From an uncultured bacterium (GTDB taxonomy: Bacteria; Verrucomicrobiota; Verrucomicrobiia; Verrucomicrobiales; DEV007), in contig CAXBMO010000001.1 in the NCBI GenBank assembly GCA_963977015.1, forward strand, positions 544,001 through 608,000: a stretch of 64,000 nt of DNA, written 5' to 3'. Positions 5,038 through 27,089 of this stretch are shown one piece after another; within the stretch, counting starts at the first letter, position 1; each line of letters starts with the position of its first letter. Both the position numbers and the translations under genes were made by a program. A model generated the notes under the pieces. It did no database searches. It was not told the DNA's origin and saw only the letters and a program-made list of their open reading frames with translations.

Positions 5038-6150
5038 CTATTCGACTTTCGCGAGGTCCGCGATTACTGCGGCCAGAAAGCGACAGGCTTCTCCGCCCAT
5101 GATGGCGCGGTGGTCGAAGGTCAAGGAGAGAGGGAGATGGCGACGCACGGCCGGTTTTCCTTCGTGGGCGACCACGGCTTCGTGGATTTTGCCGGCTCCG
5201 AGAATGGCTACCGTCGGCGGCATCACAATCGGGTTGGCAAAGCGACCGGCAATCATGCCGAAGTTCGACAAGGTGATCGTATGCCCGCGCAGTTCCTCTG
5301 GCGCGAGGCTGCGGTCTTTGACCCCTTTCCGTAGACGGGTGATTTCGTCGCGAATTTGCTGGGGGCTCATTTCCTGCACATCCCGAATGACCGGGACGAA
5401 GAGTCCGTCGCTGGTGTCGACGGCGATTCCGAGGTGCACGCTGGAAAGCAGGCGGCGACCGACGGACTCCGCGTCATACCAGGAGTTGAGCGAGGGTTCG
5501 GCTTGGCAGCCCTGGACCAGGGCACGGATCAGGCGGGCCGTGATGTCGGCGTCGGGCGCCCAGTCGTTGATATCCGCCTCGTCCATCACGGTTACCGGCA
5601 CCACTTCGGCGTTGGCGCGCGCCATGTTCGCGGCCATGACCCGGCGGACTCCGCGAAGCGGTTCGAGGGGGCCGACCTCGGCAAAAATCTTGGCGACGCG
5701 CTCGATGTCGCCCTTGGTGATGACTCCGTTAGGGCCGCTTGGCGTGACCACGCTGAGATCGATCTTGTGACGCTTCGCCAGGGCGCGCACCGCGGGGGTC
5801 GCTTTGACCCCGGAGGACTTGCTTCCCACGGCTTCCGGTTTTTCCTCGACCACATTCGCACTCACTTCGACATCTCCGACCACCGTGCCTTTGTCGCCAG
5901 TGACGGCGTCGGCATCCTCCGCTTCAAATTCCACAAGGGTATTGCCAACCGGAACGATGTCGCCCGCCGCTGCGCACAGTTTCGCGATGGTGCCGGTAAA
6001 GGGAGAGGGCAGCTCGACGACGGCCTTGTCGGTCTCCACGGACACGAGCGTCTGGTCCACGGTGACGCGGTCGCCTTCGTTGACGTGCCAGGAAACGATT
6101 TCGCCTTCCTGGAGGCCTTCGCCGAGATCGGGGAGTTTGAATTTTTTCAT
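5038..6150 (-). CDS. 2-oxoacid dehydrogenase E2, dihydrolipoamide acyltransferase (branched-chain or pyruvate)
   Basis: Lipoyl motif VETDKAVVE, E3-binding ATPAVRALA, catalytic FDHRAIMG. Confidence 0.95.
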   Translation of the reverse strand: MKKFKLPDLGEGLQEGEIVSWHVNEGDRVTVDQTLVSVETDKAVVELPSPFTGTIAKLCAAAGDIVPVGNTLVEFEAEDADAVTGDKGTVVGDVEVSANVVEEKPEAVGSKSSGVKATPAVRALAKRHKIDLSVVTPSGPNGVITKGDIERVAKIFAEVGPLEPLRGVRRVMAANMARANAEVVPVTVMDEADINDWAPDADITARLIRALVQGCQAEPSLNSWYDAESVGRRLLSSVHLGIAVDTSDGLFVPVIRDVQEMSPQQIRDEITRLRKGVKDRSLAPEELRGHTITLSNFGMIAGRFANPIVMPPTVAILGAGKIHEAVVAHEGKPAVRRHLPLSLTFDHRAIMGGEACRFLAAVIADLAKVE

Positions 6151-7127
6151 TCGTAAGTGATGGTTTCTTTGGCTGCTGTTAGGATGCGTTCCACGGAGGG
6201 AAGGTAGGTTTTTTCCAGTTTGGCCAGGGGCATCACGACATCATAACCCGTGACGCGACGGACCGGCGCAAAGAGCGACATCAACCCGAGCTCGGCAAGA
6301 TTGGCCGCGATTTCGGCTCCGAAACCGGCGCAGCGAGGGGCCTCGTGGATAATGACACAACGCCCGGTCTTCTCCACGGACTTGAGGATGGTGTTCATGT
6401 CGAGAGGCTTGATCGTGGCCACGTCGATGACTTCCGCCGAGATCCCTTCTTCGGCCAACTTGTCGGCGGCGAGCCGGGTCTCGTGCATCATCGCTCCCCA
6501 GCTCACCAGGGTGATGTCGGTGCCTTCGCGGTCGATGAAACACACGTCGAGCGGCATCGCTTCGCCGTCGTCCTGAACCTCCTGTTTGAACAACCGGTAG
6601 AGGCGAGTCGGTTCAAGGAAGATGACGGGATCGGAATCCCGGATCGCAGCGAGCAGCAAGCCGTAGGCGCGCAGGGGTGAGGACGGATAAACCACGCGAA
6701 TCCCAGGAATGTGGGCAAAAAAGGCTTCGGGGCTTTCCGAATGATGTTCGGGCGCGTGAATCCCGCCTCCGGAAGGTGAACGGAGCACCATGGGGCACGA
6801 CATGCGCCCCCGGGAACGGTTCCGGATTCGGGACGCGTGGTTGTAGACCGTGTCCATCGTTGAAAAGATGAACCCGGAAAACTGGATTTCCGCAACGGGT
6901 TTGTATCCGGAGACTGCCAGGCCATAAGACATGGAGCCGATCAGGACCTCAGCAAGAGGAGTATCGACAACCCTGTCTTCGCCAAATTTCTCGAGGAGAC
7001 CCTGAGTAGCGCGAAAAACGCCGCCATTGACCGCGACGTCCTCACCTAACACGACCACTTTGGAGTCGTGCTCCATTTCATGCTTTAGGGCTAGGTTGAT
7101 CGCTTCGACTAAATTGATTTCAGACAT
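6147..7127 (-). CDS. 2-oxoacid dehydrogenase E1 beta subunit
   Basis: GEDVAVNGGVFRAT, DTPLAE, EHHSES. Confidence 0.95.
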   Translation of the reverse strand: MSEINLVEAINLALKHEMEHDSKVVVLGEDVAVNGGVFRATQGLLEKFGEDRVVDTPLAEVLIGSMSYGLAVSGYKPVAEIQFSGFIFSTMDTVYNHASRIRNRSRGRMSCPMVLRSPSGGGIHAPEHHSESPEAFFAHIPGIRVVYPSSPLRAYGLLLAAIRDSDPVIFLEPTRLYRLFKQEVQDDGEAMPLDVCFIDREGTDITLVSWGAMMHETRLAADKLAEEGISAEVIDVATIKPLDMNTILKSVEKTGRCVIIHEAPRCAGFGAEIAANLAELGLMSLFAPVRRVTGYDVVMPLAKLEKTYLPSVERILTAAKETITYE

Positions 7128-7132
7128 AAAGA

Positions 7133-8197
7133 TTAAGGGGTATTGAGAACTTCTTCACGCTGTTCGGCGAGGGCGCCGGGGAGGGCTTCATAGAGGGAAT
7201 CGAACATGGACACTGCCGGTTGCGGATCCATGGCTAGATAGGCTTCGGCTTCCTCCGCGGCTTTCGCGGTGGCCGCCTTTTGCAGGGATTCCTCGTCCTC
7301 CTTGCTCCACACTTTGGACTTCACGAGGTAGGTTTTTAGCCTAGCGATGGGATCTTCCTTCCAATGGCGGCTGACTTCTTCCTCTTTTCGGTATCGGCTC
7401 GCATCGTCCGCGGTGGTGTGGTCGGACATCCGGTAGGTCATCATTTCGAGCAGGGTGGGTCCCTCGCCTTCGCGAGCGCGATCCAGCGCGGAATTCATCG
7501 CGGCGGAGACGGCGACGATGTCATTCCCATCGAGTTGCTCGCTGGGGATGCCGGCAGCGATGCCTTTCTGGGCCAGGGTTTCAGCTCCGCTCTGCCGGTC
7601 GCGGCGCATCGAGATGGCGTATTGATTGTTGGCGACGACAAAGACCACGGGAAGTTGCCACGTTCCCGCAGCGTTGATCCCTTCGTAGAAATCGCCTTTC
7701 GAAGTCGCGCCGTCACCCAGGGTACAGACGGCGGCCCGGGTTCCGCCTTCGAGTTTCAGGGCGTAGCCCACTCCGACGGCATGACCGGCGTGAGCACCGA
7801 TGGTCACGCAGATGGGCAGGTCGTGCTTTTGGTTTTGGTAGTCCCCGCTGCGTTCATCGCCACTCCAGTAAAGTAAGATTTCGCGCATCTGCACGCCGCG
7901 CCAGAACTGGGCGCCGTACTCGCGATAGCTTGGAATCAGAATATCGTCTTCGCGCATCGCTGCACCGATTCCGACTCCGATCGCCTCCTGTCCCAGCGAA
8001 GAAGCATAGGTGCCGAGTTGTCCGGTGCGTTGCAGCGCGATCGCTTTGGAGTCGAAGGCCCGGTTTTCGATCATCGCTTTGTAGAGCGGGATCAATGTTT
8101 TCGCATCGCGGAGCTGTTCCGGGAATTCCCTCACCGGCTCGCCACCGGGATCGAGGTAGCGGGTGTATTCTATCTTAAATTTGGCGATAATTGGCAT
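7133..8197 (-). CDS. 2-oxoacid dehydrogenase E1 alpha subunit (probably branched-chain from context)
   Basis: TPP motif GDGATSKGD...NNQYAIS and HTTADD. Start moved to the ATG of MPIIAKF. Confidence 0.93.
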   Translation of the reverse strand: MPIIAKFKIEYTRYLDPGGEPVREFPEQLRDAKTLIPLYKAMIENRAFDSKAIALQRTGQLGTYASSLGQEAIGVGIGAAMREDDILIPSYREYGAQFWRGVQMREILLYWSGDERSGDYQNQKHDLPICVTIGAHAGHAVGVGYALKLEGGTRAAVCTLGDGATSKGDFYEGINAAGTWQLPVVFVVANNQYAISMRRDRQSGAETLAQKGIAAGIPSEQLDGNDIVAVSAAMNSALDRAREGEGPTLLEMMTYRMSDHTTADDASRYRKEEEVSRHWKEDPIARLKTYLVKSKVWSKEDEESLQKAATAKAAEEAEAYLAMDPQPAVSMFDSLYEALPGALAEQREEVLNTP

Positions 8198-8208
8198 AGT
8201 ATATAAAA

Positions 8209-8997
8209 TCAGGTTGGTTGGTTCTCCTTCGCCCAATGCGGTTCTCGTTTTTCGAGAAATGCGGCGATCCCCTCGACGGCTTCCTCGGAATTGCGCGCCA
8301 CCAGATGCGATTCCAAAGCGGCATCGAGATCTTCGCGAATGCTGCCATAACCGCAGGCCAACAATTCCTTGGTTCTCGAAATCGCTTTCGGAGCGCCTTG
8401 GTGGATTTCCCGGACGAATTCGTCGGCGGATTCCTGCCCGCGCCCGGTTGGAACGACGCGATTGACCAGGCCCATTGCCAACGCCCGCTCGGCCGTGATG
8501 AGGCCCCCGCCGATCAACATTTCGCGCAAGTGTCGCTCGCCAATCTGACGTCGAAGAAATGTCGTCACCAAGGCTCCGACCAGCCCTCGTCTCACTTCGG
8601 GAAAACCGATTCTGGTTCCCTCTTCCGCGACGACGAAATCACAAGCGGACATGAGCCCGGCACCACCGGCAACGGCAGCACCGTGGACGATGGCGATCGT
8701 CACCACCGTGGCATCAGCCACCGCCTGTAGGGTTTCCGCGACGGCGCGGGCGGAGCGATGGCTTTGATCCGACATCGCTTCCGCGAGATCGAGACCGGCG
8801 CAAAATACCTTGCCTGCTCCCTGAAAAATGACCGCACGCACGCGGTTGTCGTCACCGCCGATTTTGGCCAACTCGGCCTGGAGTTGATCCATCATCTGCA
8901 TCGACAGCGCATTGCGCTGCTCAGGGCGATTCAGCGTGATTCGCACCACGGTTGGCTCGATCCGCTCGACGAGGATGGTTGGGGTTTCAGAAGTCAT
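8209..8997 (-). CDS. Enoyl-CoA hydratase/isomerase, probably methylglutaconyl-CoA hydratase (LiuC/AtuE-like)
   Basis: LNRPEQRNAL, FCAGLDL, AGGAGL and FPEVRRGL crotonase motifs; context. Confidence 0.85.
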   Translation of the reverse strand: MTSETPTILVERIEPTVVRITLNRPEQRNALSMQMMDQLQAELAKIGGDDNRVRAVIFQGAGKVFCAGLDLAEAMSDQSHRSARAVAETLQAVADATVVTIAIVHGAAVAGGAGLMSACDFVVAEEGTRIGFPEVRRGLVGALVTTFLRRQIGERHLREMLIGGGLITAERALAMGLVNRVVPTGRGQESADEFVREIHQGAPKAISRTKELLACGYGSIREDLDAALESHLVARNSEEAVEGIAAFLEKREPHWAKENQPT

Positions 8998-9321
8998 TTA
9001 GAGTTCAAGTTCGAGTATCGCCTGTCCGAGTGCCTTGCCCTGGGAATCAACCCGCAGGGAACGGCTGCCGCCGCCGTCCAGCACACCATCAATCACAAAA
9101 TTGAGGGCCAGGAGGTTGGGCACCTCGTATCGAGTCACCCTCCCGGGTCCCAGCGTCTTAAAAAATTCAGCGACCCTGGCCTCGGTCAGCTTTTCGACGA
9201 GGATCGGATAGTGTTCCGGTTCGCGGGCAAACACGGCCACATTAGCCGAACTCCCCTTGTCGCCGCTGCGGGCAAAGGCGATGTCACCTAGTTGGACGGG
9301 CTTTTGCTGATCGCTCTTCAT
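8998..9321 (-). CDS. AtuA-related small protein (AtuA C-terminal-like domain)
   Basis: ARSGDKG, RYEVPNLLALNF and GGGSRSLRVDSQGK motifs; overlaps the atuA-like gene. Confidence 0.85.
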   Translation of the reverse strand: MKSDQQKPVQLGDIAFARSGDKGSSANVAVFAREPEHYPILVEKLTEARVAEFFKTLGPGRVTRYEVPNLLALNFVIDGVLDGGGSRSLRVDSQGKALGQAILELEL

Positions 9322-10676
9322 GACACAATTTCCATCCGGGGCTTCACGTTTTCCCTGTCGATCAGGCAGGGCCAGTATCCAAATACGGGACGCACTTTCG
9401 GGCGGCCTGACGTATATCCGGTCACGCCTTGAGGACCGCTGGTCACCAGAGGCGCCACTTCTTTGGCGAAGGCGTCAGCCACCGCGCGGTCGGTGGAGAA
9501 CACGGCCACTCGTAAGACACATTCCACCAAGTCCGTCCGACGCCCCATGGCGCCCCCGGTAACGTCTCCGGAGCCGATCACTTCCATCGCGGTGCGATCC
9601 GGCACGAAGCCTTTCCGCTCGATGCGCTCGATGAGCACTTCACCCGCGCGGCGCGCTTTCGCGACCGCATTGTTACCCACGATAACGAGCATGCCTTCAG
9701 CCCGAAAGCCATCATGCCAGGTGGCGCTGACTTTGTAGGTAACCGGCGGCGGTCCTCCGCGAGCGCCAGTGATCTTGATTCGATCTTTCCCCAGCTCCTC
9801 GAGATCGAGCCCGAGGAAGGAAACAGTCGCGTCGGGGCTCAGATATCGGCCGGGATCACCAATTTCGTAGAGAAGTTGTTCCTTGACGGTTTGCAAGCTA
9901 ACCCGTCCACCAGTGGACTCCGCTTTCGTGGCGACGAACGAGCCGTCAGCCTCCATCTCAATGATGGGAAAACCGAGGTCGGCCTGACCGGGAACATCCA
10001 TCCAGTCCGTGGAACAGCCGCCCGTCATCTGCGTGCCGCACTCGATCAAATGACCCGCCACGGTGGCTGCGGCAATTCGGTCCCAGTCGTCGGTCTGCCA
10101 GTCAAACGCGGCGATCGCGGCGCCGACGGTGAGACTGGGATCGGCGACCCGCCCGGTCACCACGATATCGGCGCCCGCTCGCAAAGCTTCGGCGACCGGC
10201 GTCGCGCCGATGTAGGCATTGGCCGTTCGCAGCCGATCGCGTATCGAATCGAAGGGCTCAGCGGTCTCCGTGTTTTTGAAGCTGGACGGTTCGCCGGACC
10301 GCAGCAACTCGAGAACATCGTCTCCGGTCACCACGCCCACATTCCGGTTCGCCAGCCCTGCTTCGTCGAGGATGGCGCGAATCTCCCGGGCACATCCAGG
10401 CGGGTTCAATCCACCCGCATTGGTGATGACCTTGACCGTTCCGCCCGCATTCCAAACCGGAAGCAGCGAGCGCACCACCTCCAGAAAATCCCGGGCGTAA
10501 CCAGCGTCCGGATCGCGCTCGCGTTGGATCGCCATGATGGAAAGCGACACCTCGGCGAGGTAGTCGAGGGTCAGGAAATCGAGATCCGGGCAGGTCTCCA
10601 CCAGCCTCGCCGCAGCCCCGGGTTGGTCTCCCCAGAAGGCTTGCGCGTTGCCGATTTTGATCTGTTTTTTCATCAC
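9318..10676 (-). CDS. Acyclic terpene utilization AtuA-family protein (DUF1446)
   Basis: AFWGD, DYLAEVS, TNAGGLNP, NAYIGA, GRVADPSL, GHLIECG, EQLLYEI. Confidence 0.92.
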   Translation of the reverse strand: MMKKQIKIGNAQAFWGDQPGAAARLVETCPDLDFLTLDYLAEVSLSIMAIQRERDPDAGYARDFLEVVRSLLPVWNAGGTVKVITNAGGLNPPGCAREIRAILDEAGLANRNVGVVTGDDVLELLRSGEPSSFKNTETAEPFDSIRDRLRTANAYIGATPVAEALRAGADIVVTGRVADPSLTVGAAIAAFDWQTDDWDRIAAATVAGHLIECGTQMTGGCSTDWMDVPGQADLGFPIIEMEADGSFVATKAESTGGRVSLQTVKEQLLYEIGDPGRYLSPDATVSFLGLDLEELGKDRIKITGARGGPPPVTYKVSATWHDGFRAEGMLVIVGNNAVAKARRAGEVLIERIERKGFVPDRTAMEVIGSGDVTGGAMGRRTDLVECVLRVAVFSTDRAVADAFAKEVAPLVTSGPQGVTGYTSGRPKVRPVFGYWPCLIDRENVKPRMEIVS

Positions 10677-10708
10677 TGGTCTAGGGTGAAAGTCCGAAAC
10701 CTCGCGTT

Positions 10709-10940
10709 GGCCACCGCCGAGCTCGTCTCGGTGGGGCCCTGTTCAGTCACCAGATCAAAACCGCTGGCAATCCGCCACCACTGCGCTCGCCGCAGTGGTG
10801 CCATGTCCCCTTCTCCGGCGTCGCCGGGTGGAAAAAGGGGACATCGCTCGCCCCCGGCAAGCGGGGCCGGGGCGCTTTTGGCACAATTCATTCTGGTAGT
10901 TGAACGTGCTAACCCCCGGCGCAAGGCCGGGGGCGTGCCC
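10709..10940. repeat. Cluster of GC-rich REP-like hairpins
   Basis: CACCACTGCG-ctcgc-CGCAGTGGTG (10776-10800), ATGTCCCCTT...AAGGGGACAT (10803-10844), CCCCCGGC-gcaag-GCCGGGGG (10913-10933), and a further hairpin at 10709-10738. Confidence 0.75.
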
Positions 10941-10993
10941 AAACCTGTCTTTCGTGATTGGAAAAACCTGGAATTTGAGACTTTCACCCTATT

Positions 10994-12589
10994 TTAGACT
11001 TGGATAACTCCGGTATGAAATTTCCCTTCCGTCTTCGGTCGCGACACCAGTTCGAGGGAACGAATCAACGTCGCCCTCGTTTCATGGGGCTGGATAATCG
11101 CGTCGATCCATCCCCGCGCCGCGCCGTAACGGATGTCCATCTGCTCTTGGTATTGTTGGCGAACCCGCTCGCGGAGTTCTTCCAACTCGTCGTCGTTTTC
11201 GGCGGTGCTCGAACGTTTGAGAATGGCGAACAGCGTTTCGGAGGCCTGCCCGGCTCCCATCACGGCAAAATCGGCAGTGGGCCAGGCGAAGAGAAAACGC
11301 GGATCGTAAGCCTTGCCACAGAGCGCGTAGTTCCCGGCCCCAAACGAGCCACCGACGACCACGGTGATTTTCGGCACCACCGAATTGCTCATCGCGTTCA
11401 CGAGCTTGGCCCCACTGCGGATGATGCCGGATGCTTCGGCGTCCTTGCCTACCATGAAGCCGGTGACATCCTGGAAGAAAATGAGCGGGATGCCAGTCTG
11501 GTTGCAGTCCATCACAAACCGCGCCGCTTTATCCGCGCTGTCGCCGTAAATCACGCCGCCGATCCGGACGCCTTTTTTGGACTTCGTGTGAGTCTTCTGA
11601 TTCGCGACAATCCCTACCGGATACCCGCCGATGCGTGCGTAAGCCGTGATCAGACTTTTGCCATAATCAGCCTTGGATTCCTCGAACGAATCGGCGTCGA
11701 CGACACATTCGAGGAGGTCGTGCATCTCGTATCCCTGGCGACGGTTCCCGCCCATCACGTCAAGGATTTCGTCCACGCGACGCCCGGGCTTTTTGACGGC
11801 AGCCCGGCGTTGGCAAACAGGATTTTCCGGCAACATGGCCACCAGCCTTCGAAGCCTGGTGAGACACGCCTCATCATCCGGTTCGTGAAAATCGACGGTC
11901 CCGCTCACCTCGGCATGCATCGTCGCGCCACCCAGTGTCTCCGCATCGACCACTTCGCCGATGGCAGCTTTGACCAGCGAGGGGGCCGCGAGGTAAAGAC
12001 CGCTTCCCTCAGTCATGAGAATTTTGTCGCACAGCACCGGAAGGTAGGCTCCGCCGGCGACACAGTTTCCCATGATCGCCGCAAACTGAGGCAGGCCCGC
12101 CGCCGACATCACCGAATTATTCCGGAAAATCCGCCCAAAATCGTCTTCGTCAGGGAACACCTCATCCTGCAACGGCAGGAAGACCCCGGCCGAATCGACC
12201 AGATAAATCACCGGCAAACTGTTTTCAAAAGCGATCCGCTGGGCACGCAGCGCCTTCTTGACCGATTGCGGAAACATCGCCCCCGCTTTCACCGTCGCAT
12301 CGTTGGCGATAATCATGCAGTCCCGGCCCTCGACCGCCCCGATCCCGGCCACCACGCCCGCGGCCGCTATCTCCCCCCATTCTTGATACATGCCCCAGGC
12401 AGCCCACAAACCGATCTCCAACCAACCCGCGTCCACGTCCAGCAATTGCTCGATGCGTTGCCGCGCCGTCAACCGCCCCAGCGCAGCCTGCCGCTTAATG
12501 CCGGCTTCACCGCCACCCTGGCGGAGGACACGCTCCTGCTCCAGCACCTCCCGGCATCGGGCTTTTAGGTCATGTTTTTCGTCTGTCAT
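10994..12589 (-). CDS. Acyl-CoA carboxylase carboxyltransferase subunit (methylcrotonyl-CoA carboxylase beta-like)
   Basis: ANDATVKAG, VDSAGVFLPLQDEVFPD, GNCVAGGAY, GGSFGAGNY. Start moved to MTDEKH. Confidence 0.92.
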   Translation of the reverse strand: MTDEKHDLKARCREVLEQERVLRQGGGEAGIKRQAALGRLTARQRIEQLLDVDAGWLEIGLWAAWGMYQEWGEIAAAGVVAGIGAVEGRDCMIIANDATVKAGAMFPQSVKKALRAQRIAFENSLPVIYLVDSAGVFLPLQDEVFPDEDDFGRIFRNNSVMSAAGLPQFAAIMGNCVAGGAYLPVLCDKILMTEGSGLYLAAPSLVKAAIGEVVDAETLGGATMHAEVSGTVDFHEPDDEACLTRLRRLVAMLPENPVCQRRAAVKKPGRRVDEILDVMGGNRRQGYEMHDLLECVVDADSFEESKADYGKSLITAYARIGGYPVGIVANQKTHTKSKKGVRIGGVIYGDSADKAARFVMDCNQTGIPLIFFQDVTGFMVGKDAEASGIIRSGAKLVNAMSNSVVPKITVVVGGSFGAGNYALCGKAYDPRFLFAWPTADFAVMGAGQASETLFAILKRSSTAENDDELEELRERVRQQYQEQMDIRYGAARGWIDAIIQPHETRATLIRSLELVSRPKTEGKFHTGVIQV

Positions 12590-12665
12590 ATCAGGGGTTT
12601 CAACCGCCAGCGGTTGGATGGGTCTCGCGTGACGAGATCCCACCAATCAAGCGTGAATCTGCATT

Positions 12666-12871
12666 CGTCGCGTCTGCGACTGATGATGTTAGCCGTGGGA
12701 TTAATCCCACGGAAAGGCATGAAATAAGGCTTCGTCGCGTCAGCGACCGGTCAAGCGTCTTGGCCAATCGATTCCCAAGCGACGCGAACGGTCGCTGACG
12801 CGACGTCATCCATCTATCACACCAAACGTGGGTTAAAACCCACGCCTAACATGAACTGTCGCTACGCGACG
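12666..12871. mobile_element. Nested inverted-repeat element (REP/MITE-like)
   Basis: Outer CGTCGCGT.. / ..ACGCGACG ends, two CGTGGG-N-CCCACG hairpins, and a perfect inner 17-bp IR (12733-12749 / 12789-12805). Confidence 0.7.
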
Positions 12872-13336
12872 CTAAATGGATGCCAGCGGTTGATAATTAG
12901 ACGTGAACGGAATGAGTCTCTTCCGAAAAACTTTCGGCAAGAAATACGGTTCGCCGGGGCCGTCTGGCCGAACCGCGTTAACTAAACGCAGAGCTTCGGC
13001 CATCGGACTCCACGCGAGCTTGTCTCCGTGAAACCGCGATCATCAACCAGAATCGCACCGGATTACGTCCGCCCCGGGCTGGCCTCGTGCCGATCGAGCG
13101 ATGATTCTCTTGGGCGGGAGTCAGAGCTCGAACGGGGGCAAATTTGTGAGGCTCCGTTCTGGTAGTTGGTCAAATAAACATGGCGTGGCCACTCTGAACG
13201 TGGACGAGTTCCAACGAGTCGCCAATCTGGATGTGATCGACGCTGGGAAGTATTCGTCTTAGAGGGAATGGCGCAAGGTTAAGCGGGCTCATCGGAAAAT
13301 TTACCCAGGTCTCCACAGGGATTTATTCCCGTGGAA

Positions 13337-13534
13337 CCGAGACCAACCACCAGACCAATTCAATCTAAATGCTCGCCCCGGCTGGCCTTGCGCCAGTCGA
13401 GCGCTGACCGTCAAAAACCAGATCGTGCGCCTGGAAGGAGTCAGCGCTCCACCGGCATGAAACCGGTGGTGGCGATTGGTCTCGGGAGATGGATCTGGTG
13501 GTTGATCGCGCACCCACCGGGGCGAGCCCGGTGG
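13337..13534. repeat. Second nested inverted-repeat/REP-like cluster
   Basis: IR pairs 13337-46/13476-85, 13344-54/13494-504, 13399-408/13440-49 and 13371-81/13517-27; hairpins CCACCGG..CCGGTGG. Confidence 0.7.
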
Positions 13535-13629
13535 AGAGCTAAGTTGGTTAAACTTGCGCCATTCGTTTTAGGGGGGAGTCCTCCACTGAACTTGCGAAGC
13601 GATCCCATCTATTTTTGCGCTGACGCTAA

Positions 13630-15621
13630 TTACCGGTCTCCCGGAAATTGCTGGATATCATCCTTCACGACCGGTTTTCCCTCGCCCTTGGCGACCGGGG
13701 ATGTTTCGTGAATGTAGAAGTCCTTGTTGGGTAGGGTGTCGTTGTGATCCAGAACGGCTTGGGCGGCGGCGGACATGGTCTTGTCGGCGTTGTTTTTCAG
13801 TCTAGTGACGTTTTCGTGGTAGGCGTGCTCGGCGAGGTCGAGGAAATGGAGGGCGCAGGCCTTGTCCCGTTCGAAGAGCTTGCCGGATGCGTTGCTGTTG
13901 AGCTGGGAATCGAGCTTTGACAGCACGCAAGCCATGGCGTGCAGCCACATGGCGCCATCGCCGAGGCGGGCCTGGACGAGCTGCCGTTTCAGGATCTGAT
14001 CCTTGAACCGCTGGCTGGCGAGCTTGAATTGGTGGTTGTGATCGGCGACCATCTTGGACCATTTGTCGGCATGCTCTCGGAGCGAGGGATGGATGTTGCT
14101 GATGTGGGGCTTGGGTGGTTTGATTCCTAGGAAAATCTGCGCGCCGAGGCCCATGGCTTTGAGCGAAATCTGCGGGTTGAGGGCGTTTTTTATGATCCGG
14201 GACAGGTTCGCTCCGACGGTCTCGGTTCCATCCCAAAACAGAGCCTGACGAATGGCCAGCATTTGCTCGGCAAGCTGCTTGCCTCCGTAGCCGAAGACGA
14301 ACACTCGCATCACCTCGTTGGCTCCCTCGCCGATCTTGTAAAGCCGTGCGTCGCGATAGGCGCGCTCGACTTCGTTTTCGGTCATGTAGCCTTCGCCTCC
14401 CATGATTTGCAGGGCGTCGTCAATCACCTGCCAGCCATAGTGCGAGGCAAACACCTTGGCGACCGCGGTTTCGACCATGATGTCTTTCTCATCGCGGTCG
14501 AGCATGCCGGTGGTCATGTAGAGCATCGCGTCGATCGCGTAGCACATGGCGCCCATGTTGGCGATCCGATCCTGAACGAGCTCGAAGGCCGACAAGGGGC
14601 GCTCGAACTGGTATCTCGTCTGCGACCACTTCACCGCCTGCTCCATCGCGCCCTTGGCGGAGCCGAGAATTCCCGACGAGAGGGTGCATCTTCCGTAATT
14701 CAGACAGGTGAGCGCCACTTTCAGGCCTTGCCCTTCTTTATGCAGCAGGTTCTCTTTCGGGACCCTGACATTGGTAAAACGAATCCGGCCCTGCCAGGTG
14801 CCGCGAACGCCGCACTTGGAACGGTTTTTCTCAAAAATATCCACGCCCTCCATGTCCGGGGTGCAGATCAATGCCGTGACCGCCTTCGATACCCGACCCG
14901 TTTTGGGATCCACGAGTTGCTGGTTGCATAACACGGTGAACAACGCGCTGTAGGCGGCGGAGGTTGACCACTTTTTCTCTCCGTTGAGGATGTAGTGGGT
15001 TCCGTCCTCGCTGAGTTCGGCGCGGGTTTCCTGGCCGCCGGCGTCGCAACCCACGTTCGGCTCGGATAGACAAAAGGCGGAGAGGGCCGAACGGGCCATG
15101 ATGGGAAGCCACTTCTTTTTCTGCTCCGCCGTCCCGAACAGCATCAATGCCTTGCAGCCGATCGACTGGTGGGCGGAGACGACCACGGAGGTCGAGGCGC
15201 AGGTCCGGCCGAGACGCTCGAGAACCCGGTTGTAGCTGGTGATGCTCAACCCCAAACCACCGTATTCCTCGGGAATCGTCATCCCCATGACGCCAAGTTC
15301 AAAGAGCCGGTCAATCGCGCTGCGCGGAATTTCCTGCTCGCGGTCAATCCGAATCGCGGGATGCTCGTTTTTCAGATAGTCATCCAGTTTCGCCAGCAAA
15401 TCGTCGGCTTTCCGCTTCTCCTCTGGCGAAACTTCGGGGTAGGGAAAAATCAGATCTTCGCGGATTTTGCCCCAGAACAGGTTCTTCACAAAACCCATTT
15501 CGGCGGGTTCCGGCCCCATCACCATCTGGGTGTTTTCGAGCATCTTGCGATCTTCCTCGGAGATGTCTCTAAGATGTTTGAGATCGCTCATGTTTAAAGT
15601 TTTAGACGAAAACCAAGCCAT
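13630..15621 (-). CDS. Acyl-CoA dehydrogenase, long (ACAD9/VLCAD-like) form
   Basis: SAHQSIG, AFCLSEPNVGCDA, LNGEKKW, GGEGYM, IGEGANEV. Alternative start at 15591. Confidence 0.93.
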   Translation of the reverse strand: MAWFSSKTLNMSDLKHLRDISEEDRKMLENTQMVMGPEPAEMGFVKNLFWGKIREDLIFPYPEVSPEEKRKADDLLAKLDDYLKNEHPAIRIDREQEIPRSAIDRLFELGVMGMTIPEEYGGLGLSITSYNRVLERLGRTCASTSVVVSAHQSIGCKALMLFGTAEQKKKWLPIMARSALSAFCLSEPNVGCDAGGQETRAELSEDGTHYILNGEKKWSTSAAYSALFTVLCNQQLVDPKTGRVSKAVTALICTPDMEGVDIFEKNRSKCGVRGTWQGRIRFTNVRVPKENLLHKEGQGLKVALTCLNYGRCTLSSGILGSAKGAMEQAVKWSQTRYQFERPLSAFELVQDRIANMGAMCYAIDAMLYMTTGMLDRDEKDIMVETAVAKVFASHYGWQVIDDALQIMGGEGYMTENEVERAYRDARLYKIGEGANEVMRVFVFGYGGKQLAEQMLAIRQALFWDGTETVGANLSRIIKNALNPQISLKAMGLGAQIFLGIKPPKPHISNIHPSLREHADKWSKMVADHNHQFKLASQRFKDQILKRQLVQARLGDGAMWLHAMACVLSKLDSQLNSNASGKLFERDKACALHFLDLAEHAYHENVTRLKNNADKTMSAAAQAVLDHNDTLPNKDFYIHETSPVAKGEGKPVVKDDIQQFPGDR

Positions 15622-18965: not shown

Positions 18966-19343
18966 AATGCCTCTTCTTCGAGTCGACTACAACATGCGAT
19001 GCCGGTGTCGCTGCCAACTTGGGTGAAATCTGCCTCCCTTGAAGGATCTGAGTTGCTGACAAGTCCATTCTGGGCATGGGACCGGTTCCCTAATGGCAAG
19101 TAGTGCGGCCAACAAGTCGTCCAGCGAGACACTCGCAATCGCCGAGGCTGCGAAGGGGAGGATTAGCTTCCGACCGTGAAGCATCGAGCCGCAGGTATGA
19201 CCCACGTTGGGCATGTAGTCACGAACCGTTCACGTGAATAGAACCCGTTGGAGAAGCGTTCTAACTATCGAAGCTACTACGGCTGACATGTCCCTGACTT
19301 GTCCCTACGGCAAAACGTAGCTATATTGATTTTAGGAGATGTT

Positions 19344-20525
19344 ATGATGAATTCCCCCCATCTCCATAGCGGCTCGCCGCAGGATTTTGAAATCCTGGAA
19401 GACTCCGAACACGAACAGATTGTTTTCTGCAAGGATCTGGAGTCCGGGCTACGGGCGATCATCGCCATTCACAACACGGCGCTGGGGCCCAGCCTGGGCG
19501 GATGCCGCATGTGGAACTACGGTTCGGAAGCGGAGGCGCTAACCGATGCGCTGCGTCTGAGCCGCGGCATGAGCTACAAATCAGCGCTGGCCGGGCTGCC
19601 ACTGGGCGGTGGGAAGGCCGTGATTTGGGGGGATTCGAAGCGGGACAAATCCAAGGCGATGTTTCGCGCTTTCGGACGATTTGTCGAAAGCCTGAACGGG
19701 CGTTACATCACCGGGGAAGACGTTGGCACCAGCATGGCTGACATGGACGTCATCTTTGAAGAAACCAGCTACGTGGTGGGCGTTTCGCCTCGCTTGGGCG
19801 GCTCCGGCGATCCCAGCCGTTATACGGCTTACGGCTGTTTGCAGGGCATCCGCGCCTCGGTTAAGGAACAGCTGAATCGAGACACGCTCAAAGGGATTCG
19901 CGTTGCGATTCAGGGGATCGGGCATGTGGGGCAAAACCTGGCCCGGATGCTCCGCGAACAAGATGCCGAGGTGATTGCGGCGGATCTCGATACGGAAAAA
20001 TGTAGGAAGTTTTGCGACGAATTCGACTGCGAACCAGCCAACGCCGAAGAGATCCTTTTCGTCGATTGCGACGTCCTTGCGCCCTGTGCCATGGGCGGCG
20101 CGATCAACGACGACACCATTGACAAGCTGAATTGCTCGATCGTGGCGGGATCGGCCAACAATCAACTTGCAGCAAAGCGCCATGGAAAGGCGCTGGCGGA
20201 CAAGGGCATTCTCTACGCGCCGGATTATGCCATTAATTCCGGGGGGCTCATCAACGTTTCGTTGGAGTTGGAAGGCTACAACCGCGACGAGGCGGTTTGC
20301 CGAGTCAAGCGCCTCTACGATGTCTTGTCGCACATCTACAAGATTGCCCGGGCAGAAGGGATTCCCACCAACGAAGCGGCAGACCATGTCGCCGAGCAAC
20401 GCCTTGAGAACGCCAAACACCAATCGCGGCGAGTTTGGCTGGCTCGGGAACATCCCTCCTTCATTCACCGCAATCAGGAAAGGTCCCTGCCGGGAAGTCA
20501 ATCTCAGCTGGATCTTTTTGGATAA
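19344..20525 (+). CDS. Leucine/valine dehydrogenase (Glu/Leu/Phe/Val family)
   Basis: LGPSLGGCR, GMSYK, GGGKAVI, GEDVG, GIGHVG, GSANNQL; AGGAG RBS at 19334-19338. Confidence 0.95.
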   Translation: MMNSPHLHSGSPQDFEILEDSEHEQIVFCKDLESGLRAIIAIHNTALGPSLGGCRMWNYGSEAEALTDALRLSRGMSYKSALAGLPLGGGKAVIWGDSKRDKSKAMFRAFGRFVESLNGRYITGEDVGTSMADMDVIFEETSYVVGVSPRLGGSGDPSRYTAYGCLQGIRASVKEQLNRDTLKGIRVAIQGIGHVGQNLARMLREQDAEVIAADLDTEKCRKFCDEFDCEPANAEEILFVDCDVLAPCAMGGAINDDTIDKLNCSIVAGSANNQLAAKRHGKALADKGILYAPDYAINSGGLINVSLELEGYNRDEAVCRVKRLYDVLSHIYKIARAEGIPTNEAADHVAEQRLENAKHQSRRVWLAREHPSFIHRNQERSLPGSQSQLDLFG

Positions 20526-24055: not shown

Positions 24056-24207
24056 CAATGGGGGAGGGGGCGGAAGTGGGAACGGCGCCTTTGTTTGGGC
24101 GGCTCTTTCGCCCGGATCTTCAATCAGGTCGCCGACAAATATGGCTCTGCTGGGGCCAAGTTCATGAATGGAAGTATAGTGGAAGGCGGTCGAATTCTAA
24201 AGAACGA

Positions 24208-25353
24208 ATGCCGAACTCCCCCAAACAAGCCCCCATTCGCCTCCTAACCGCGGTGCCGATTTGCGATGGGCATGACAGTGCGATTTCCACGATTAATCTG
24301 GAATTTAGCCGCCGGGGGCTGGAGATCATTTACCTCGGCTATCACCGGCGTGCGCGGGAAATCGTGCGCGCGGCGGTACAGGAAGACGTGCGCGCCATTG
24401 GCATTTCAAGCTACAACGGCGGGCACGTCGAGTTCTTCGAAGTGGTTGCCAAGCTTCTCAAGGAAGAGGGGGCCGGGCATATCGGAATCTTCGGGGGTGG
24501 CGGCGGAACGATCACACCGGAGGACGCGGAGGTGATGGCCGGATTTGGCGTGGATCGCATTTTTTTCGCCGGAACCAAGTTGGAAGAAATGGTGGGTTGG
24601 GTGAAGGCGCATTATTCGGAACAACCCACGAGAGAAATCCTCACCGATGCCTCGACGGATCTGGCGCTGGGACGAATGATCACCGCCGCTGAGTTTGCAG
24701 GGAAGGTTCCCAAACCGCCTCCGCGAAGTCGGCGTCCGGCCATCTTCGGATTCACCGGACCAGGCGGCGCCGGAAAGACGACGTTGATCGACGAGCTGTT
24801 GGCGCGCTGGTTGGCGACCCAGCCGAAAGGCCGCCTGGCGATCTTGTCGCACGATCCCAGCATCGTGGGCAAAGGTGCGCTGCTCGGCGACCGGGCCGGG
24901 ATGATCCACGTGCACGATGACCGCATTTTTGTTCGCAGCCTCGCCACGGCCGGTCGCGCCGGAGGCCTGGCGCCAATGACAGAGCGTTGCCTTCAGATTC
25001 TCTGCCAGCCGGATTGGGGCTTCGACACGATTTTCGTCGAAACGGTCGGCATCGGCCAGGAAGCGATCCCGTTTGGCGAAGGCTGGGTTGATGCCGCCGT
25101 CTTCGTCCTCAATCCGGATTACGGCAGCCGGCTCCAGCTTCAGAAAATCGCCATGCTCGACGTCGCCGACATCGTGGTACTCAACAAGTTCGACCGCCCT
25201 GAGGCTCCCGCGGCCTTGGCGGAACTGGAGGACCGCCTGAGCTTGCGCGAACGCCCGCATCAAGTCTTCACGACCGTGGCCAGTCGGCATCGCGATCCCG
25301 GTGTGGACCGGTTGTTCGAAACGCTGAACATACAAAAGGAGGAGGGGGCATGA
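24208..25353 (+). CDS. B12-binding domain fused to MeaB/MeaI-type GTPase (N-terminal half of an IcmF-like enzyme)
   Basis: DGHD cobalamin-His motif, SSYNGGH, GGGGTI, P-loop GPGGAGKT, ETVGIGQ, NKFD. Confidence 0.88.
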   Translation: MPNSPKQAPIRLLTAVPICDGHDSAISTINLEFSRRGLEIIYLGYHRRAREIVRAAVQEDVRAIGISSYNGGHVEFFEVVAKLLKEEGAGHIGIFGGGGGTITPEDAEVMAGFGVDRIFFAGTKLEEMVGWVKAHYSEQPTREILTDASTDLALGRMITAAEFAGKVPKPPPRSRRPAIFGFTGPGGAGKTTLIDELLARWLATQPKGRLAILSHDPSIVGKGALLGDRAGMIHVHDDRIFVRSLATAGRAGGLAPMTERCLQILCQPDWGFDTIFVETVGIGQEAIPFGEGWVDAAVFVLNPDYGSRLQLQKIAMLDVADIVVLNKFDRPEAPAALAELEDRLSLRERPHQVFTTVASRHRDPGVDRLFETLNIQKEEGA

Positions 25354-27089
25354 GTGTACTGGCGCAAATCAACCGGGCGGTCGAAGCGTTCAATTCGAAC
25401 GTTGAAAAACGCGTCCGCCAGGCGCGCGAGGACGAAGAATTTGCGGAAGAGACGAAGCGCCGTTGGGACGCAATCTGCAGCGAGATCACCGAAGTCGAAA
25501 CGCCGACCGGATTGAAGTTGCCGCGGCTCGCCCTGCCGCAAACCGACGAACCCGGTGAGATTGTGCGTTACCTGGAAGGCGAGGGGCTGCCGGGCGAATT
25601 TCCGTTTGTGAACGCGATTTATCGGGAAATGTATCGCGGGGAGGAGGAAGAGCCGACCCGCTTATTCGCAGGTCTCGGGTTAGCCGAAGACACCAACGAG
25701 CGATTTCATTACCTCACCGGACATCAGGAGAGCCGGCGGCTCAGCACCGCGTTCGACGGCCCCACGCTCTACGGCATCGACAGCGATGAGGAAGACGTTT
25801 TTGGCAAAATCGGCGAGGGCGGTGTCGCCATCGACACGATCGAGGACATGGAACGGCTCTACGCGGGGTTTCCGCTCGATGACCTGCGGTTGTCGGTGTC
25901 GATGACCATCAACGGCCCCGCTCCCACGATCCTGGCAATGTACGTCGCGATGGCCAAAAAACGGCACGGCGAGGGCGTCATCGAAGAGCTGCGTGGCACG
26001 GTCCAGGCCGACATTCTCAAGGAAGTCCAGGCCCAGAACGAGAGCCTCTTTGCGGTCGACGCCTCCCTCCGGTTTCTCACCGACATGGTCGAATTCGCCG
26101 CGGAACGCATGCCGCGCTGGTATCCCATTTCCATCAGCGGCTACCACATGACCGAAGCCGGCGCGACGCCCGTGCAGCAGGCCGCCTACACGCTTTCGAA
26201 CGGGTTCGCCTACGTCGAGATGTTTCGCGAGCGCGGCATGAAGCTCGACCGCTTCGCCCCGAGACTGTCCTTCTTTCTGGATTGTGGACTCGACGTGGAA
26301 TACCTCGTCCTGGCGCGGGTTTGCCGGAAGCTCTGGGCCGTCGGAATGCGCGACGTTTTCGGCGCGGAGGCGTCAGCTCAGAAGTTCAAACTCCACACCC
26401 AAACCAGCGGCCGTTCCCTCGTCGCCGCCGAGTTCAAAAACAACCTGACCCGCACCGCGGTGGAGTTGATGCTCGCCTACATCAACGCCACGAACTCCAG
26501 CCACAGCAACAGCGCCGATGAACCGTTCACCACCCCGAGCGAGGAATACGTTCGCCTCGCTTCCCACGGCCAATCGATCCTTCTGGAAGAATCCGGGCTG
26601 TTCAAACACATGATGAACACGTTGGCGGGATCGCCCGGGATGAAGATTCTCGAGAGCCGGGTCGAAGCCGCAATTTTGAGCGAGTTTCGCGAAATCGACC
26701 GGTTGGGCGGCGTGCTCGCTGCGATGGAGCATCGTTACCAGCGCAGCCAGATTCAATCTGCGGCTCTACGCTACGAACGCGCCATTTCGGAGGGGACACG
26801 ACCGATCATCGGCGTGAACCGCTACGCCAGTGTCACGGGCTCCGACTCCCCCGAAATCGAACTGGTCCGTATTCCGCATGAGAAAAAGGAGCGGCAAGTC
26901 GCGCGGGTGAGGGACTTCAAACAGCGTCACGCCGGGGAAGCCGGACATGCTCTGCAACGCCTGGCTCAAGTCGTGGAGAATGGCGGGAATGTCTTCGAGG
27001 AACTCATCACCACGGTAGAGACCTGCACGTTGGGCCAGATTACTGAATTGCTACAAGAGGTGACCGGACCGTTCCGGCCCAGTTTGTAA
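25350..27089 (+). CDS. AdoCbl-dependent acyl-CoA mutase substrate-binding subunit (C-terminal half of an IcmF-like isobutyryl-CoA mutase)
   Basis: PTRLFAG, RLSTAFD, SMTINGPAP, GTVQADILKEVQAQN, SISGYH; strong RBS and ATGA overlap. Confidence 0.88.
   Translation: MSVLAQINRAVEAFNSNVEKRVRQAREDEEFAEETKRRWDAICSEITEVETPTGLKLPRLALPQTDEPGEIVRYLEGEGLPGEFPFVNAIYREMYRGEEEEPTRLFAGLGLAEDTNERFHYLTGHQESRRLSTAFDGPTLYGIDSDEEDVFGKIGEGGVAIDTIEDMERLYAGFPLDDLRLSVSMTINGPAPTILAMYVAMAKKRHGEGVIEELRGTVQADILKEVQAQNESLFAVDASLRFLTDMVEFAAERMPRWYPISISGYHMTEAGATPVQQAAYTLSNGFAYVEMFRERGMKLDRFAPRLSFFLDCGLDVEYLVLARVCRKLWAVGMRDVFGAEASAQKFKLHTQTSGRSLVAAEFKNNLTRTAVELMLAYINATNSSHSNSADEPFTTPSEEYVRLASHGQSILLEESGLFKHMMNTLAGSPGMKILESRVEAAILSEFREIDRLGGVLAAMEHRYQRSQIQSAALRYERAISEGTRPIIGVNRYASVTGSDSPEIELVRIPHEKKERQVARVRDFKQRHAGEAGHALQRLAQVVENGGNVFEELITTVETCTLGQITELLQEVTGPFRPSL

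Follow-up and report, generated by a model that had tools for sequence, protein, structure and literature searches.

In a stretch of 64,000 nucleotides from the genome of an uncultured verrucomicrobial bacterium (Verrucomicrobiales, DEV007; GenBank assembly GCA_963977015.1, contig CAXBMO010000001.1, positions 544,001 to 608,000 of the forward strand), hereafter called the window, the gene for an AtuA-family protein and that for its small companion, AtuA-C, lie within a cluster that resembles the liu genes for leucine degradation. The two proteins probably constitute a heteromeric carbon–carbon lyase, of the type of AtuA and the citramalate lyase CmlAB, which replaces the TIM-barrel 3-hydroxy-3-methylglutaryl-coenzyme A (HMG-CoA) lyase in leucine/isovalerate catabolism. 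Independent computational evidence of several kinds supports the recruitment of such a lyase to the HMG-CoA step: the original prediction, made from the sequence of this DNA alone, had placed the AtuA pair at that step, and gene content, fold, conservation and distribution support it in silico. HMG-CoA lyase is regarded as indispensable to leucine catabolism, and a genome without it is counted as incapable of degrading leucine. In the present case, that step appears to be taken over by a structurally unrelated enzyme of two subunits, whose conserved operon occurs in at least six phyla.

The AtuA Gene Cluster

The genes named in the original prediction are all present and co-oriented on the minus strand, as verified with Pfam and NCBIfam models. 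In the order of transcription, the cluster comprises a long acyl-CoA dehydrogenase (ACAD), a spacer of about 1 kb, a carboxyltransferase (CT), a spacer of about 320 bp, AtuA, AtuA-C, a crotonase-family enoyl-CoA hydratase (ECH) and the E1a, E1b and E2 components of a branched-chain 2-oxoacid dehydrogenase (BKD). The AtuA large subunit (9318–10673; 451 aa) matches PF07287 with 482.9 bits (cut-off 22.8), covers 436 of the 437 positions of that model and occurs in one copy in the genome. Its stop codon overlaps by four bases with the start of AtuA-C (8998–9321; 107 aa), an AtuA ferredoxin-like domain of the DUF4387 type (PF23544, 105.1 bits; cut-off 27), and the crotonase (8209–8997; 262 aa; ECH_1, 173.1 bits) starts immediately 3′ of the AtuA-C stop. 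From AtuA through AtuA-C, crotonase, E1a (7133–8236; E1_dh, 269.7 bits) and E1b (6147–7127; Transket_pyr and Transketolase_C) to E2 (5038–6150; 2-oxoacid_dh, Biotin_lipoyl and E3_binding), consecutive stop and start codons overlap or abut.

Upstream, the CT of the 3-methylcrotonyl-CoA carboxylase (MCC) beta type, or MccB type (10994–12589; 531 aa; PF01039 (Carboxyl_trans), 463.4 bits), starts with the ATG at 12589, while the longest open reading frame (ORF) extends to 12646. One correction to the original gene order is that CT and AtuA do not adjoin, being separated by the hairpin-rich spacer at 10674–10993. The ACAD (13630–15621; 663 aa; Acyl-CoA_dh_N/M/1 and PF21343) has a C-terminal domain of the ACAD9/ACADV type and is, from its family, a candidate isovaleryl-CoA dehydrogenase; in many related loci, an ACAD of about 590 aa, 34–39% identical to that of the window, lies 5′ of CT. 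The leucine dehydrogenase that had been predicted nearby is there only as a candidate: on the plus strand (19299–20525), a 408-aa amino-acid dehydrogenase belongs to the Glu/Leu/Phe/Val family, and its best NCBIfam match, a ScyB-like model, scores 393.5 bits, below the 600-bit cut-off.

The Genome Lacks a Recognisable HMG-CoA Lyase

The absence of an HMG-CoA lyase gene, first noted for the window, extends to the genome (completeness 95.3%), in which Pfam, NCBIfam and tblastn searches did not find liuE/hmgL. The genome has three matches to PF00682 (HMGL-like), situated on contigs C16, C10 and C27, and they are LeuA (815 bits to NF002991), CimA (761 bits to TIGR00977) and a frame of 1165 aa that also carries biotin-carboxylase and biotinyl domains and is, therefore, a pyruvate carboxylase. 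The HMG-CoA lyase model NF004283 gave no match over cut-off in any of 41 genomes (the present one and 40 same-order relatives); three out of 14 control genomes had such a match. A genuine HMG-CoA lyase of the same phylum, used as the tblastn query, found no match in the genome at E ≤ 1e-3. AtuA and AtuA-C themselves do not match any HMG-CoA lyase model, and neither has an HMGL-like TIM-barrel domain.

Kinship with Citramalate Lyase

The original prediction of a two-subunit AtuA lyase was made without knowledge of CmlAB, a carbon–carbon lyase that releases acetate, and both subunits match this enzyme. A sequence search of the PDB with AtuA returned one weak match, 9erq/9evf, deposited as “Acyclic terpene utilization AtuA family protein” and “Citramalate lyase, subunit A (cmlA)”. 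AF2 models of AtuA and AtuA-C (predicted local distance difference test scores, pLDDT, of 88.7 and 87.1, respectively) were compared with the solved structures. The AtuA model matches 9evf_A (“Citramalate lyase - ADP - pyruvate complex”) with a Foldseek E-value of 8.6e-24 and a template modelling (TM) score of 0.71, and 9erq_A (“AMPPNP - citramalate complex”) with Z = 29.1 and a root-mean-square deviation of 3.6 over 409 of 451 residues; the next match has Z = 8.2. For AtuA-C, the sole PDB match at E ≤ 1e-3 is 9evf_B, chain B of the same citramalate lyase (E = 8.3e-4, probability 1.00, TM scores 0.64/0.65). Sequence searches of the PDB with AtuA-C (phmmer and a profile of 19 sequences) found no match, so that only the fold search led to CmlB. 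The motif blocks GR..DP, G[HK]..EC and LYE..DP are aligned with CmlA by HMMER and are invariant in 22 relatives. AtuA and AtuA-C likely form a heteromer, because the two are fused in frame in 24 of 75 loci (see below) and CmlA and CmlB co-crystallised.

Passages of a recent preprint (bioRxiv 10.64898/2026.01.16.699985) describe the use of the citramalate lyase of Raoultella planticola (I. Berg laboratory), which converts citramalate directly into pyruvate and acetate. The AtuA family, hence, contains an experimentally used carbon–carbon lyase by which acetate is split off a 3-hydroxy acid. CmlAB resembles the window pair in its architecture, a large AtuA-family subunit of about 450 aa with a small subunit of about 105 aa, and in the type of reaction proposed here, in which a 3-hydroxy acid is cleaved and acetate released. 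Its genes, however, belong to a methylaspartate/glutamate-fermentation operon, whereas the window pair is found in a liu-like acyl-CoA cluster; its substrate is free citramalate, whereas the predicted substrate of the window pair is the CoA thioester HMG-CoA. Annotation of window positions 1–27089 revealed no methylaspartate-pathway genes (mal, glutamate mutase, mesaconase), and since the neighbours are CT, crotonase, BKD and ACAD, without methylaspartate genes, the pair was not classed as a citramalate lyase.

Conservation across Phyla

Homologues of AtuA number in the thousands in protein collections, at about 57–62% identity. A scan of GTDB species genomes yielded 80 loci (1.29 Mb of flanking sequence), annotated by BLAST against the window proteins, which span Chlamydiota, Verrucomicrobiota, Planctomycetota, Acidobacteriota, Hydrogenedentota, Bacteroidota and others. 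CT lies directly upstream of AtuA, on the same strand, in 63 of the 70 loci whose upstream sequence extends to 1.8 kb or more, and a partial CT is visible in eight of the 10 loci with less. AtuA-C follows AtuA in 75 out of 79 loci (24 fused in frame, 51 split), and 49 of the 68 loci with room for it have a crotonase downstream, no more than 3 kb from AtuA. HMG-CoA lyase and biotin carboxylase (BC) genes were each found in none of the flanks of the 80 loci.

Within its own order, the cluster is an island. AtuA has a match in one of 40 same-order relatives (G010, of the same family as the window genome), which we rejected as an orthologous cluster: it is only 44% identical and is situated at a contig end. 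None of the 40 encodes an MccB-type CT at comparable identity.

AtuA Pairs and HMG-CoA Lyase Have Complementary Distributions

The original prediction had proposed an anti-correlation test. Among CT-bearing genomes of two phyla, AtuA pairs and HMG-CoA lyase are indeed anti-correlated, although not absolutely. In the phylum of the window, we sampled 301 genomes, each at least 90% complete, scoring CT at E ≤ 1e-100 and HMG-CoA lyase at E ≤ 1e-40; the latter threshold may miss divergent HMGL-like genes. Fourteen genomes carry CT: six have AtuA adjacent to it (including the window genome), six have HMG-CoA lyase, two have neither and none has both (Fisher p = 0.0097, with related genomes not being independent). 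The exchange can be followed within one genus (g57), where G277 has CT, AtuA, AtuA-C and ECH in a row and no HMG-CoA lyase, and where G184 and G325 have contiguous CT and ECH with an HMG-CoA lyase of 321–322 aa elsewhere. In G090, the HMG-CoA lyase gene lies between CT and ECH.

The sample of Acidobacteriota comprised 151 genomes, of which 94 carry CT, 45 AtuA and 71 a match to HMG-CoA lyase. AtuA is located within 1.5 kb of CT in 13 genomes, three of which have an HMG-CoA lyase match, versus 43 of the 64 CT-bearing genomes without AtuA (p = 0.005). Nine out of 10 other cluster-bearing genomes (five of five and four of five) are without an HMG-CoA lyase over cut-off.

In 10 Acidobacteriota genomes (G509, G542, G554, G566, G578, G590, G602, G622, G635 and G645), whose CTs are 55–59% identical to that of the window, an HMGL-like gene follows CT at a distance of 7–1333 bp, in the slot taken by AtuA elsewhere. 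These HMGL-like genes are divergent (171–229 bits, below the NCBIfam cut-off of 246 bits; frames of about 290–470 aa) and make up a third kind of lyase at this position in the operon.

Carboxyltransferase and Hydratase

The best solved relatives of CT are AccD1 of Mycobacterium tuberculosis (1.2e-134) and the MCC beta subunits of Pseudomonas aeruginosa (1.9e-131) and human (1.9e-127), with weaker matches to the beta subunits of geranyl-CoA carboxylase (1.1e-95) and propionyl-CoA carboxylase (about 1e-82). It is the sole 12S-type CT in the genome. The cluster has, therefore, the MCC beta subunit (LiuB) of a liu cluster and not the geranyl-CoA carboxylase partner (AtuC/AtuF) of the Atu pathway: CT is nearer to MCC beta, and an alpha subunit with BC and biotin carboxyl carrier protein (BCCP) domains is lacking. 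For the crotonase, all NCBIfam matches are below cut-off, including gamma-carboxygeranoyl-CoA hydratase (1.5e-40), and its PDB relatives include a putative isohexenylglutaconyl-CoA hydratase (4zu2, 2.8e-33); from its sequence and context, we propose it as the putative 3-methylglutaconyl-CoA hydratase (the LiuC role).

A search with PF02785 found no MCC alpha-type protein (LiuD, a BC-BCCP protein of about 650 aa) in the genome. The BC domains present belong to AccC (453 aa, adjoining AccB), to a urea carboxylase (1193 aa, neighboured by allophanate hydrolase and DUF1989) and to the pyruvate-carboxylase frame (1165 aa). That AtuA compensates for the absent alpha subunit was considered and rejected, for genomes with CT and HMG-CoA lyase but without AtuA show the same set of BCs: four of five (G090, G184, G325 and G340) have only the AccC type, of 455–493 aa, and the fifth has one weak match of 553 aa. 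The AtuA carriers of the phylum and the Chlamydiota carriers likewise have only AccC-type BCs. The absence of MCC alpha is a lineage trait, unrelated to AtuA.

Among genomes with an MccB-type CT, fifteen from Verrucomicrobiota and Chlamydiota (G000, G041–G045, G087, G090, G101, G158, G184, G196, G277, G325 and G340) lack an MCC alpha-type BC-BCCP protein and have only AccC-type BC, of 455–560 aa. The likeliest reading is that MCC in these lineages is a multi-subunit enzyme that borrows AccB and AccC.

Proposed Pathway

In the proposed pathway, leucine would be converted to 2-oxoisocaproate by the candidate leucine dehydrogenase, 2-oxoisocaproate to isovaleryl-CoA by BKD E1a/E1b/E2, and isovaleryl-CoA to 3-methylcrotonyl-CoA by the long ACAD. 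The MccB-type CT would then yield 3-methylglutaconyl-CoA; because a dedicated alpha subunit does not exist, it would be served with carboxybiotin by the housekeeping AccB/AccC. The crotonase would hydrate 3-methylglutaconyl-CoA to HMG-CoA, which we infer to be the substrate of AtuA/AtuA-C, with AtuA as the proposed catalytic subunit.

The lyase reaction on 3-hydroxy-3-isohexenylglutaryl-CoA (HIHG-CoA; EC 4.1.3.26) gives acetate and a 3-oxoacyl-CoA, and HMG-CoA is the methyl homologue of this type of substrate. By analogy with this reaction and with that of citramalate lyase, cleavage would take place on the free-carboxylate side of HMG-CoA and would release acetate and acetoacetyl-CoA, the latter directly usable by a thiolase. 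The genome lacks a family-I CoA-transferase for the activation of acetoacetate and does contain thiolases, consistent with acetoacetyl-CoA as the product.

The CmlAB crystals carry, according to the PDB titles, AMPPNP and citramalate (9ERQ) and ADP and pyruvate (9EVF). Since CmlAB was crystallised with nucleotides, ATP may activate or regulate the window pair too, and a nucleotide may, by this analogy, take some part in catalysis or regulation. A bolder version, which we regard as doubtful, is that the liu-type AtuA/AtuA-C represents a mechanistically new class of HMG-CoA lyase that depends on a nucleotide: activation of the free carboxylate by ATP, possibly through an acyl phosphate, would let an acetate-level carbanion leave, with acetoacetyl-CoA and acetate or acetyl phosphate as products. 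If so, leucine would be broken down without passing through free acetoacetate in Chlamydiota, Verrucomicrobiota, Planctomycetota, Acidobacteriota and others, and the same mechanism would explain the role of AtuA in terpene and naphthalene degradation.

AtuA-type genes also follow hydratase genes in other annotated contexts, namely on a Rhodococcus and on a Microvirga plasmid. On plasmid NZ_CP016618.1 of Microvirga ossetica (L142:4978–8776), genes for a family-III CoA-transferase, an enoyl-CoA hydratase and a fused AtuA of 597 aa stand in a row, which adjoins dioxygenase-like genes. G253 (L134:8503–11352), a genome without CT, has a remote AtuA pair, with 38% and 39% identity, and directly after it a thiolase gene (Thiolase_N, 297.7 bits), an arrangement that fits AtuA-type lyases yielding a 3-oxoacyl-CoA. 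Fifteen of the 45 AtuA carriers in Acidobacteriota are without CT, so that AtuA stands in another context there. Eight small genomes of the window’s phylum (1.9–3.5 Mb; G060, G080, G102, G188, G224, G227, G302 and G338) have a weak AtuA-family match (E-values from 1e-22 to 1e-28) in frames of 451–478 aa, possibly a CmlA-like or otherwise divergent subfamily.

Weighing the Assignment

Several points weigh against a replacement of HMG-CoA lyase by the AtuA pair. The function of liu-type AtuA is a computational prediction. The pair is only 16–18% identical to CmlAB, and at 16–17% identity to CmlA, substrate specificity is not transferable; the products are assigned by analogy. The hydratase and the ACAD are assigned to family level only. 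The genome is 5% short of complete, and some other carrier genomes are of unstated completeness. An AMP-forming acetoacetyl-CoA synthetase, by which free acetoacetate could be activated, is possible in the genome. A terminator-like stem-loop is located in the spacer between CT and AtuA (10855–10837, minus strand), albeit a weak call, with 15 terminator-like sites in the scanned region versus 9.9 ± 3.1 in shuffles.

The distribution has its exceptions, too. CT occurs with neither lyase in two of the 14 genomes of the phylum (G057 and G322, of one genus) and in 21 of the 64 Acidobacteriota CT genomes without AtuA; either there is a third solution, or divergent lyases fall below the threshold, or CT is not always a marker of the leucine pathway. 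Conversely, CT-AtuA and an HMGL-like gene occur together in one genome of Opitutae (G341, 268.7 bits) and in three of Acidobacteriota (G591, G594 and G628); the HMGL-like genes of these four score 266–271 bits, just above the 246-bit cut-off. In all four, as well as in G530 (255 bits), the HMGL-like gene is part of a separate conserved cluster, with genes for an IsoDH/IPMDH-like protein, a family-III CoA-transferase and the large and small subunits of an aconitase-like enzyme. This HMGL-like gene probably serves another pathway, although it could encode a working HMG-CoA lyase.

The separate cluster (L135:6473–13176 in G341; L136:7763–13095; L137:6897–12487; L138:7050–12079; L139:6832–11859) is 57–74% identical between the Opitutae genome, assembled from a metagenome, and the four Acidobacteriota genomes, with an aldehyde dehydrogenase gene added in G341. 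Nowhere else does an HMGL-like gene accompany CT-AtuA.

Alternative Explanations

The family owes its name to the Atu pathway of acyclic terpene breakdown, in which, according to passages in PMC4847356, AtuA is listed as the HIHG-CoA:acetate lyase, and the window pair could be a lyase of this kind with another substrate: another 3-hydroxy-3-alkylglutaryl-CoA, such as the isohexenyl compound, or a different acid with a branched chain. In that case, the cluster would either not serve leucine degradation or have a different last step. The matches of the hydratase to gamma-carboxygeranoyl-CoA hydratase and to the AtuE-like 4zu2 would suit this explanation, as would the diverse contexts of AtuA homologues and the two CT-bearing genomes with neither lyase. 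We nevertheless consider another substrate unlikely: CT is MCC-beta-like (1e-127 to 1e-134) and not geranyl-CoA-carboxylase-like (1.1e-95), the pair shares one operon with BKD E1a/E1b/E2 and has an amino-acid dehydrogenase nearby, and its distribution is complementary to HMG-CoA lyase specifically. Moreover, liu-type AtuA orthologues in other phyla are about 55–60% identical to the window protein, whereas plasmid-borne, Atu-like homologues reach at most 45%. A substrate of HMG-CoA granted, the pair might still cleave it with other chemistry, either to the canonical acetyl-CoA and acetoacetate or in an ATP-coupled reaction via an acyl phosphate that releases acetyl phosphate. Nucleotide ligands in both CmlAB crystal forms speak for other chemistry, as do an AMP-binding CoA ligase gene within 4 kb of AtuA in 13 of the 80 loci (Pfam-verified in three) and, on a Rhodococcus plasmid, a PTA_PTB phosphate acyltransferase gene (268 bits) translationally coupled upstream of AtuA. 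The latter link, however, is found in that single locus, without a homologue in the 80 loci or in the window genome at E ≤ 1e-5; citramalate is, as described in passages of bioRxiv 10.64898/2026.01.16.699985, split directly into pyruvate and acetate, and the canonical products would need acetoacetate activation, for which no family-I CoA-transferase was found in the genome. Chemistry of either sort appears quite improbable.

Highly improbable is a role of the pair as a nucleotide-dependent carboxylation helper that stands in for the BC and BCCP functions of MCC alpha, with HMG-CoA being cleaved otherwise. It would account for the lack of a dedicated alpha subunit in the genome and of a BC gene in the 80 loci, for the nearly constant position of AtuA next to CT, and for the binding of AMPPNP and ADP by the solved relative. 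Yet the solved relative is a lyase; genomes with CT and HMG-CoA lyase but without AtuA have only AccC-type BCs, as do AtuA and Chlamydiota carriers, and AtuA is present where the lyase is missing, irrespective of the alpha subunit. A Rhodococcus plasmid cluster even combines AtuA/AtuA-C with a BC-BCCP subunit of 672 aa. A lyase acting on HMG-CoA with release of acetate remains the explanation that we prefer.

On the plasmid of Rhodococcus gordoniae (NZ_CP101468.1; L141:5955–8661), the PTA_PTB gene overlaps the start of the split AtuA/AtuA-C pair, in an atu-like cluster with genes for TetR, CT, the 672-aa BC subunit, ACAD and ECH. The coupling could hint at acyl-phosphate chemistry. We rejected a general link between PTA and AtuA, as no PTA homologue occurs in the 80 loci or in the window genome.

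Comparison with Known Systems

The AtuA proteins of Pseudomonas and Thauera belong, like the window pair, to the PF07287 and PF23544 families, and the Atu pathway, as outlined in parts of PMC4847356 and PMC13689101, follows the logic proposed here, from carboxylase via hydratase to a lyase that releases acetate and a 3-oxoacyl-CoA. Pseudomonas AtuA is listed there tentatively as HIHG-CoA:acetate lyase; a section of one review gives the step to LiuE (PMC4097962). Pseudomonas and Thauera AtuA are fused proteins (615 aa in Thauera; PMC4847356, in part), while AtuA of the window is split; the CT of the Atu pathway is of the geranyl-CoA-carboxylase type, while that of the window is MCC-type; an alpha subunit is absent from the window genome, and the AtuA pair is joined to a BKD operon.

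LiuE, HmgL and YngG (PF00682, NF004283) share with the window pair the proposed step and the operon slot. The likeness is functional only, the fold of LiuE being unrelated to that of AtuA/AtuA-C, and the products differ: acetyl-CoA and acetoacetate for LiuE versus acetate and acetoacetyl-CoA as proposed for the window pair. The liuABCDE cluster of Pseudomonas resembles that of the window in that ACAD, MCC-beta CT and hydratase are united in one cluster; it includes LiuD and LiuE, whereas the window genome is without both, has AtuA/AtuA-C inserted and has BKD genes in the same operon.

A further parallel is provided by ThnQ and ThnS of the anaerobic naphthalene (thn) operon, two adjacent genes annotated as AtuA-like lyase, which act after hydratases that form tertiary alcohols; in the relevant parts of PMC12016498 and PMC13689101, the thn authors favour ring cleavage by an AtuA-like aldolase. 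Unlike HMG-CoA, the substrate is a cyclohexane-derived CoA ester, and we liken the systems by description, not by sequence. In the literature searched, which covered few subscription journals, we found no statement that AtuA replaces HMG-CoA lyase.

If the assignment is true, it would close a gap in the pathways reconstructed for environmental Chlamydiota, Verrucomicrobiota, Planctomycetota and Acidobacteriota. Acetoacetyl-CoA and acetate as products would change the pathway bookkeeping, because no acetoacetate activation is then needed. HMG-CoA is a simple, commercially available substrate with which the function of the AtuA family can be probed.

Other Features of the Window

The spacers at 10674–10993 and 12590–13629 are unusually long and dense in GC-rich palindromes, such as that at 12733–12805 (arms of 31 nt, 81% complementary); a direct repeat of 32 nt occurs at 13073 and 13376, with a spacing of 303 bp. 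They look like repetitive extragenic palindromic (REP) elements. A search for Rfam RNA families between window positions 4000 and 21000 found none. The spacer that separates CT from AtuA includes an ORF of 104 aa, which we do not regard as a gene: it has no Pfam or NCBIfam match, is of low complexity and is rich in hairpins.

On the plus strand near the cluster, genes for a short-chain dehydrogenase/reductase (SDR) and a 3-hydroxyisobutyryl-CoA hydrolase-type crotonase accompany that of the amino-acid dehydrogenase; PrpB, PrpD and an IcmF-like mutase pair are encoded farther away. The PSD/PSCyt domains of the organism had suggested a planctomycete; this reading was rejected, as sampling by phylum gave one and the same set of genomes for the window genome and for the Opitutae genome G341, in agreement with Verrucomicrobiota. 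The IcmF-like pair (MeaB with a B12-binding protein, and the mutase large subunit) is situated at 24058–27089, about 11 kb from the cluster. Such a pair lies directly upstream of CT-AtuA in eight Opitutae-type loci (L040, L053, L055, L059, L060, L070, L075 and L083), and B12-dependent acyl-CoA mutase and the CT-AtuA cluster are, thus, recurrently linked.

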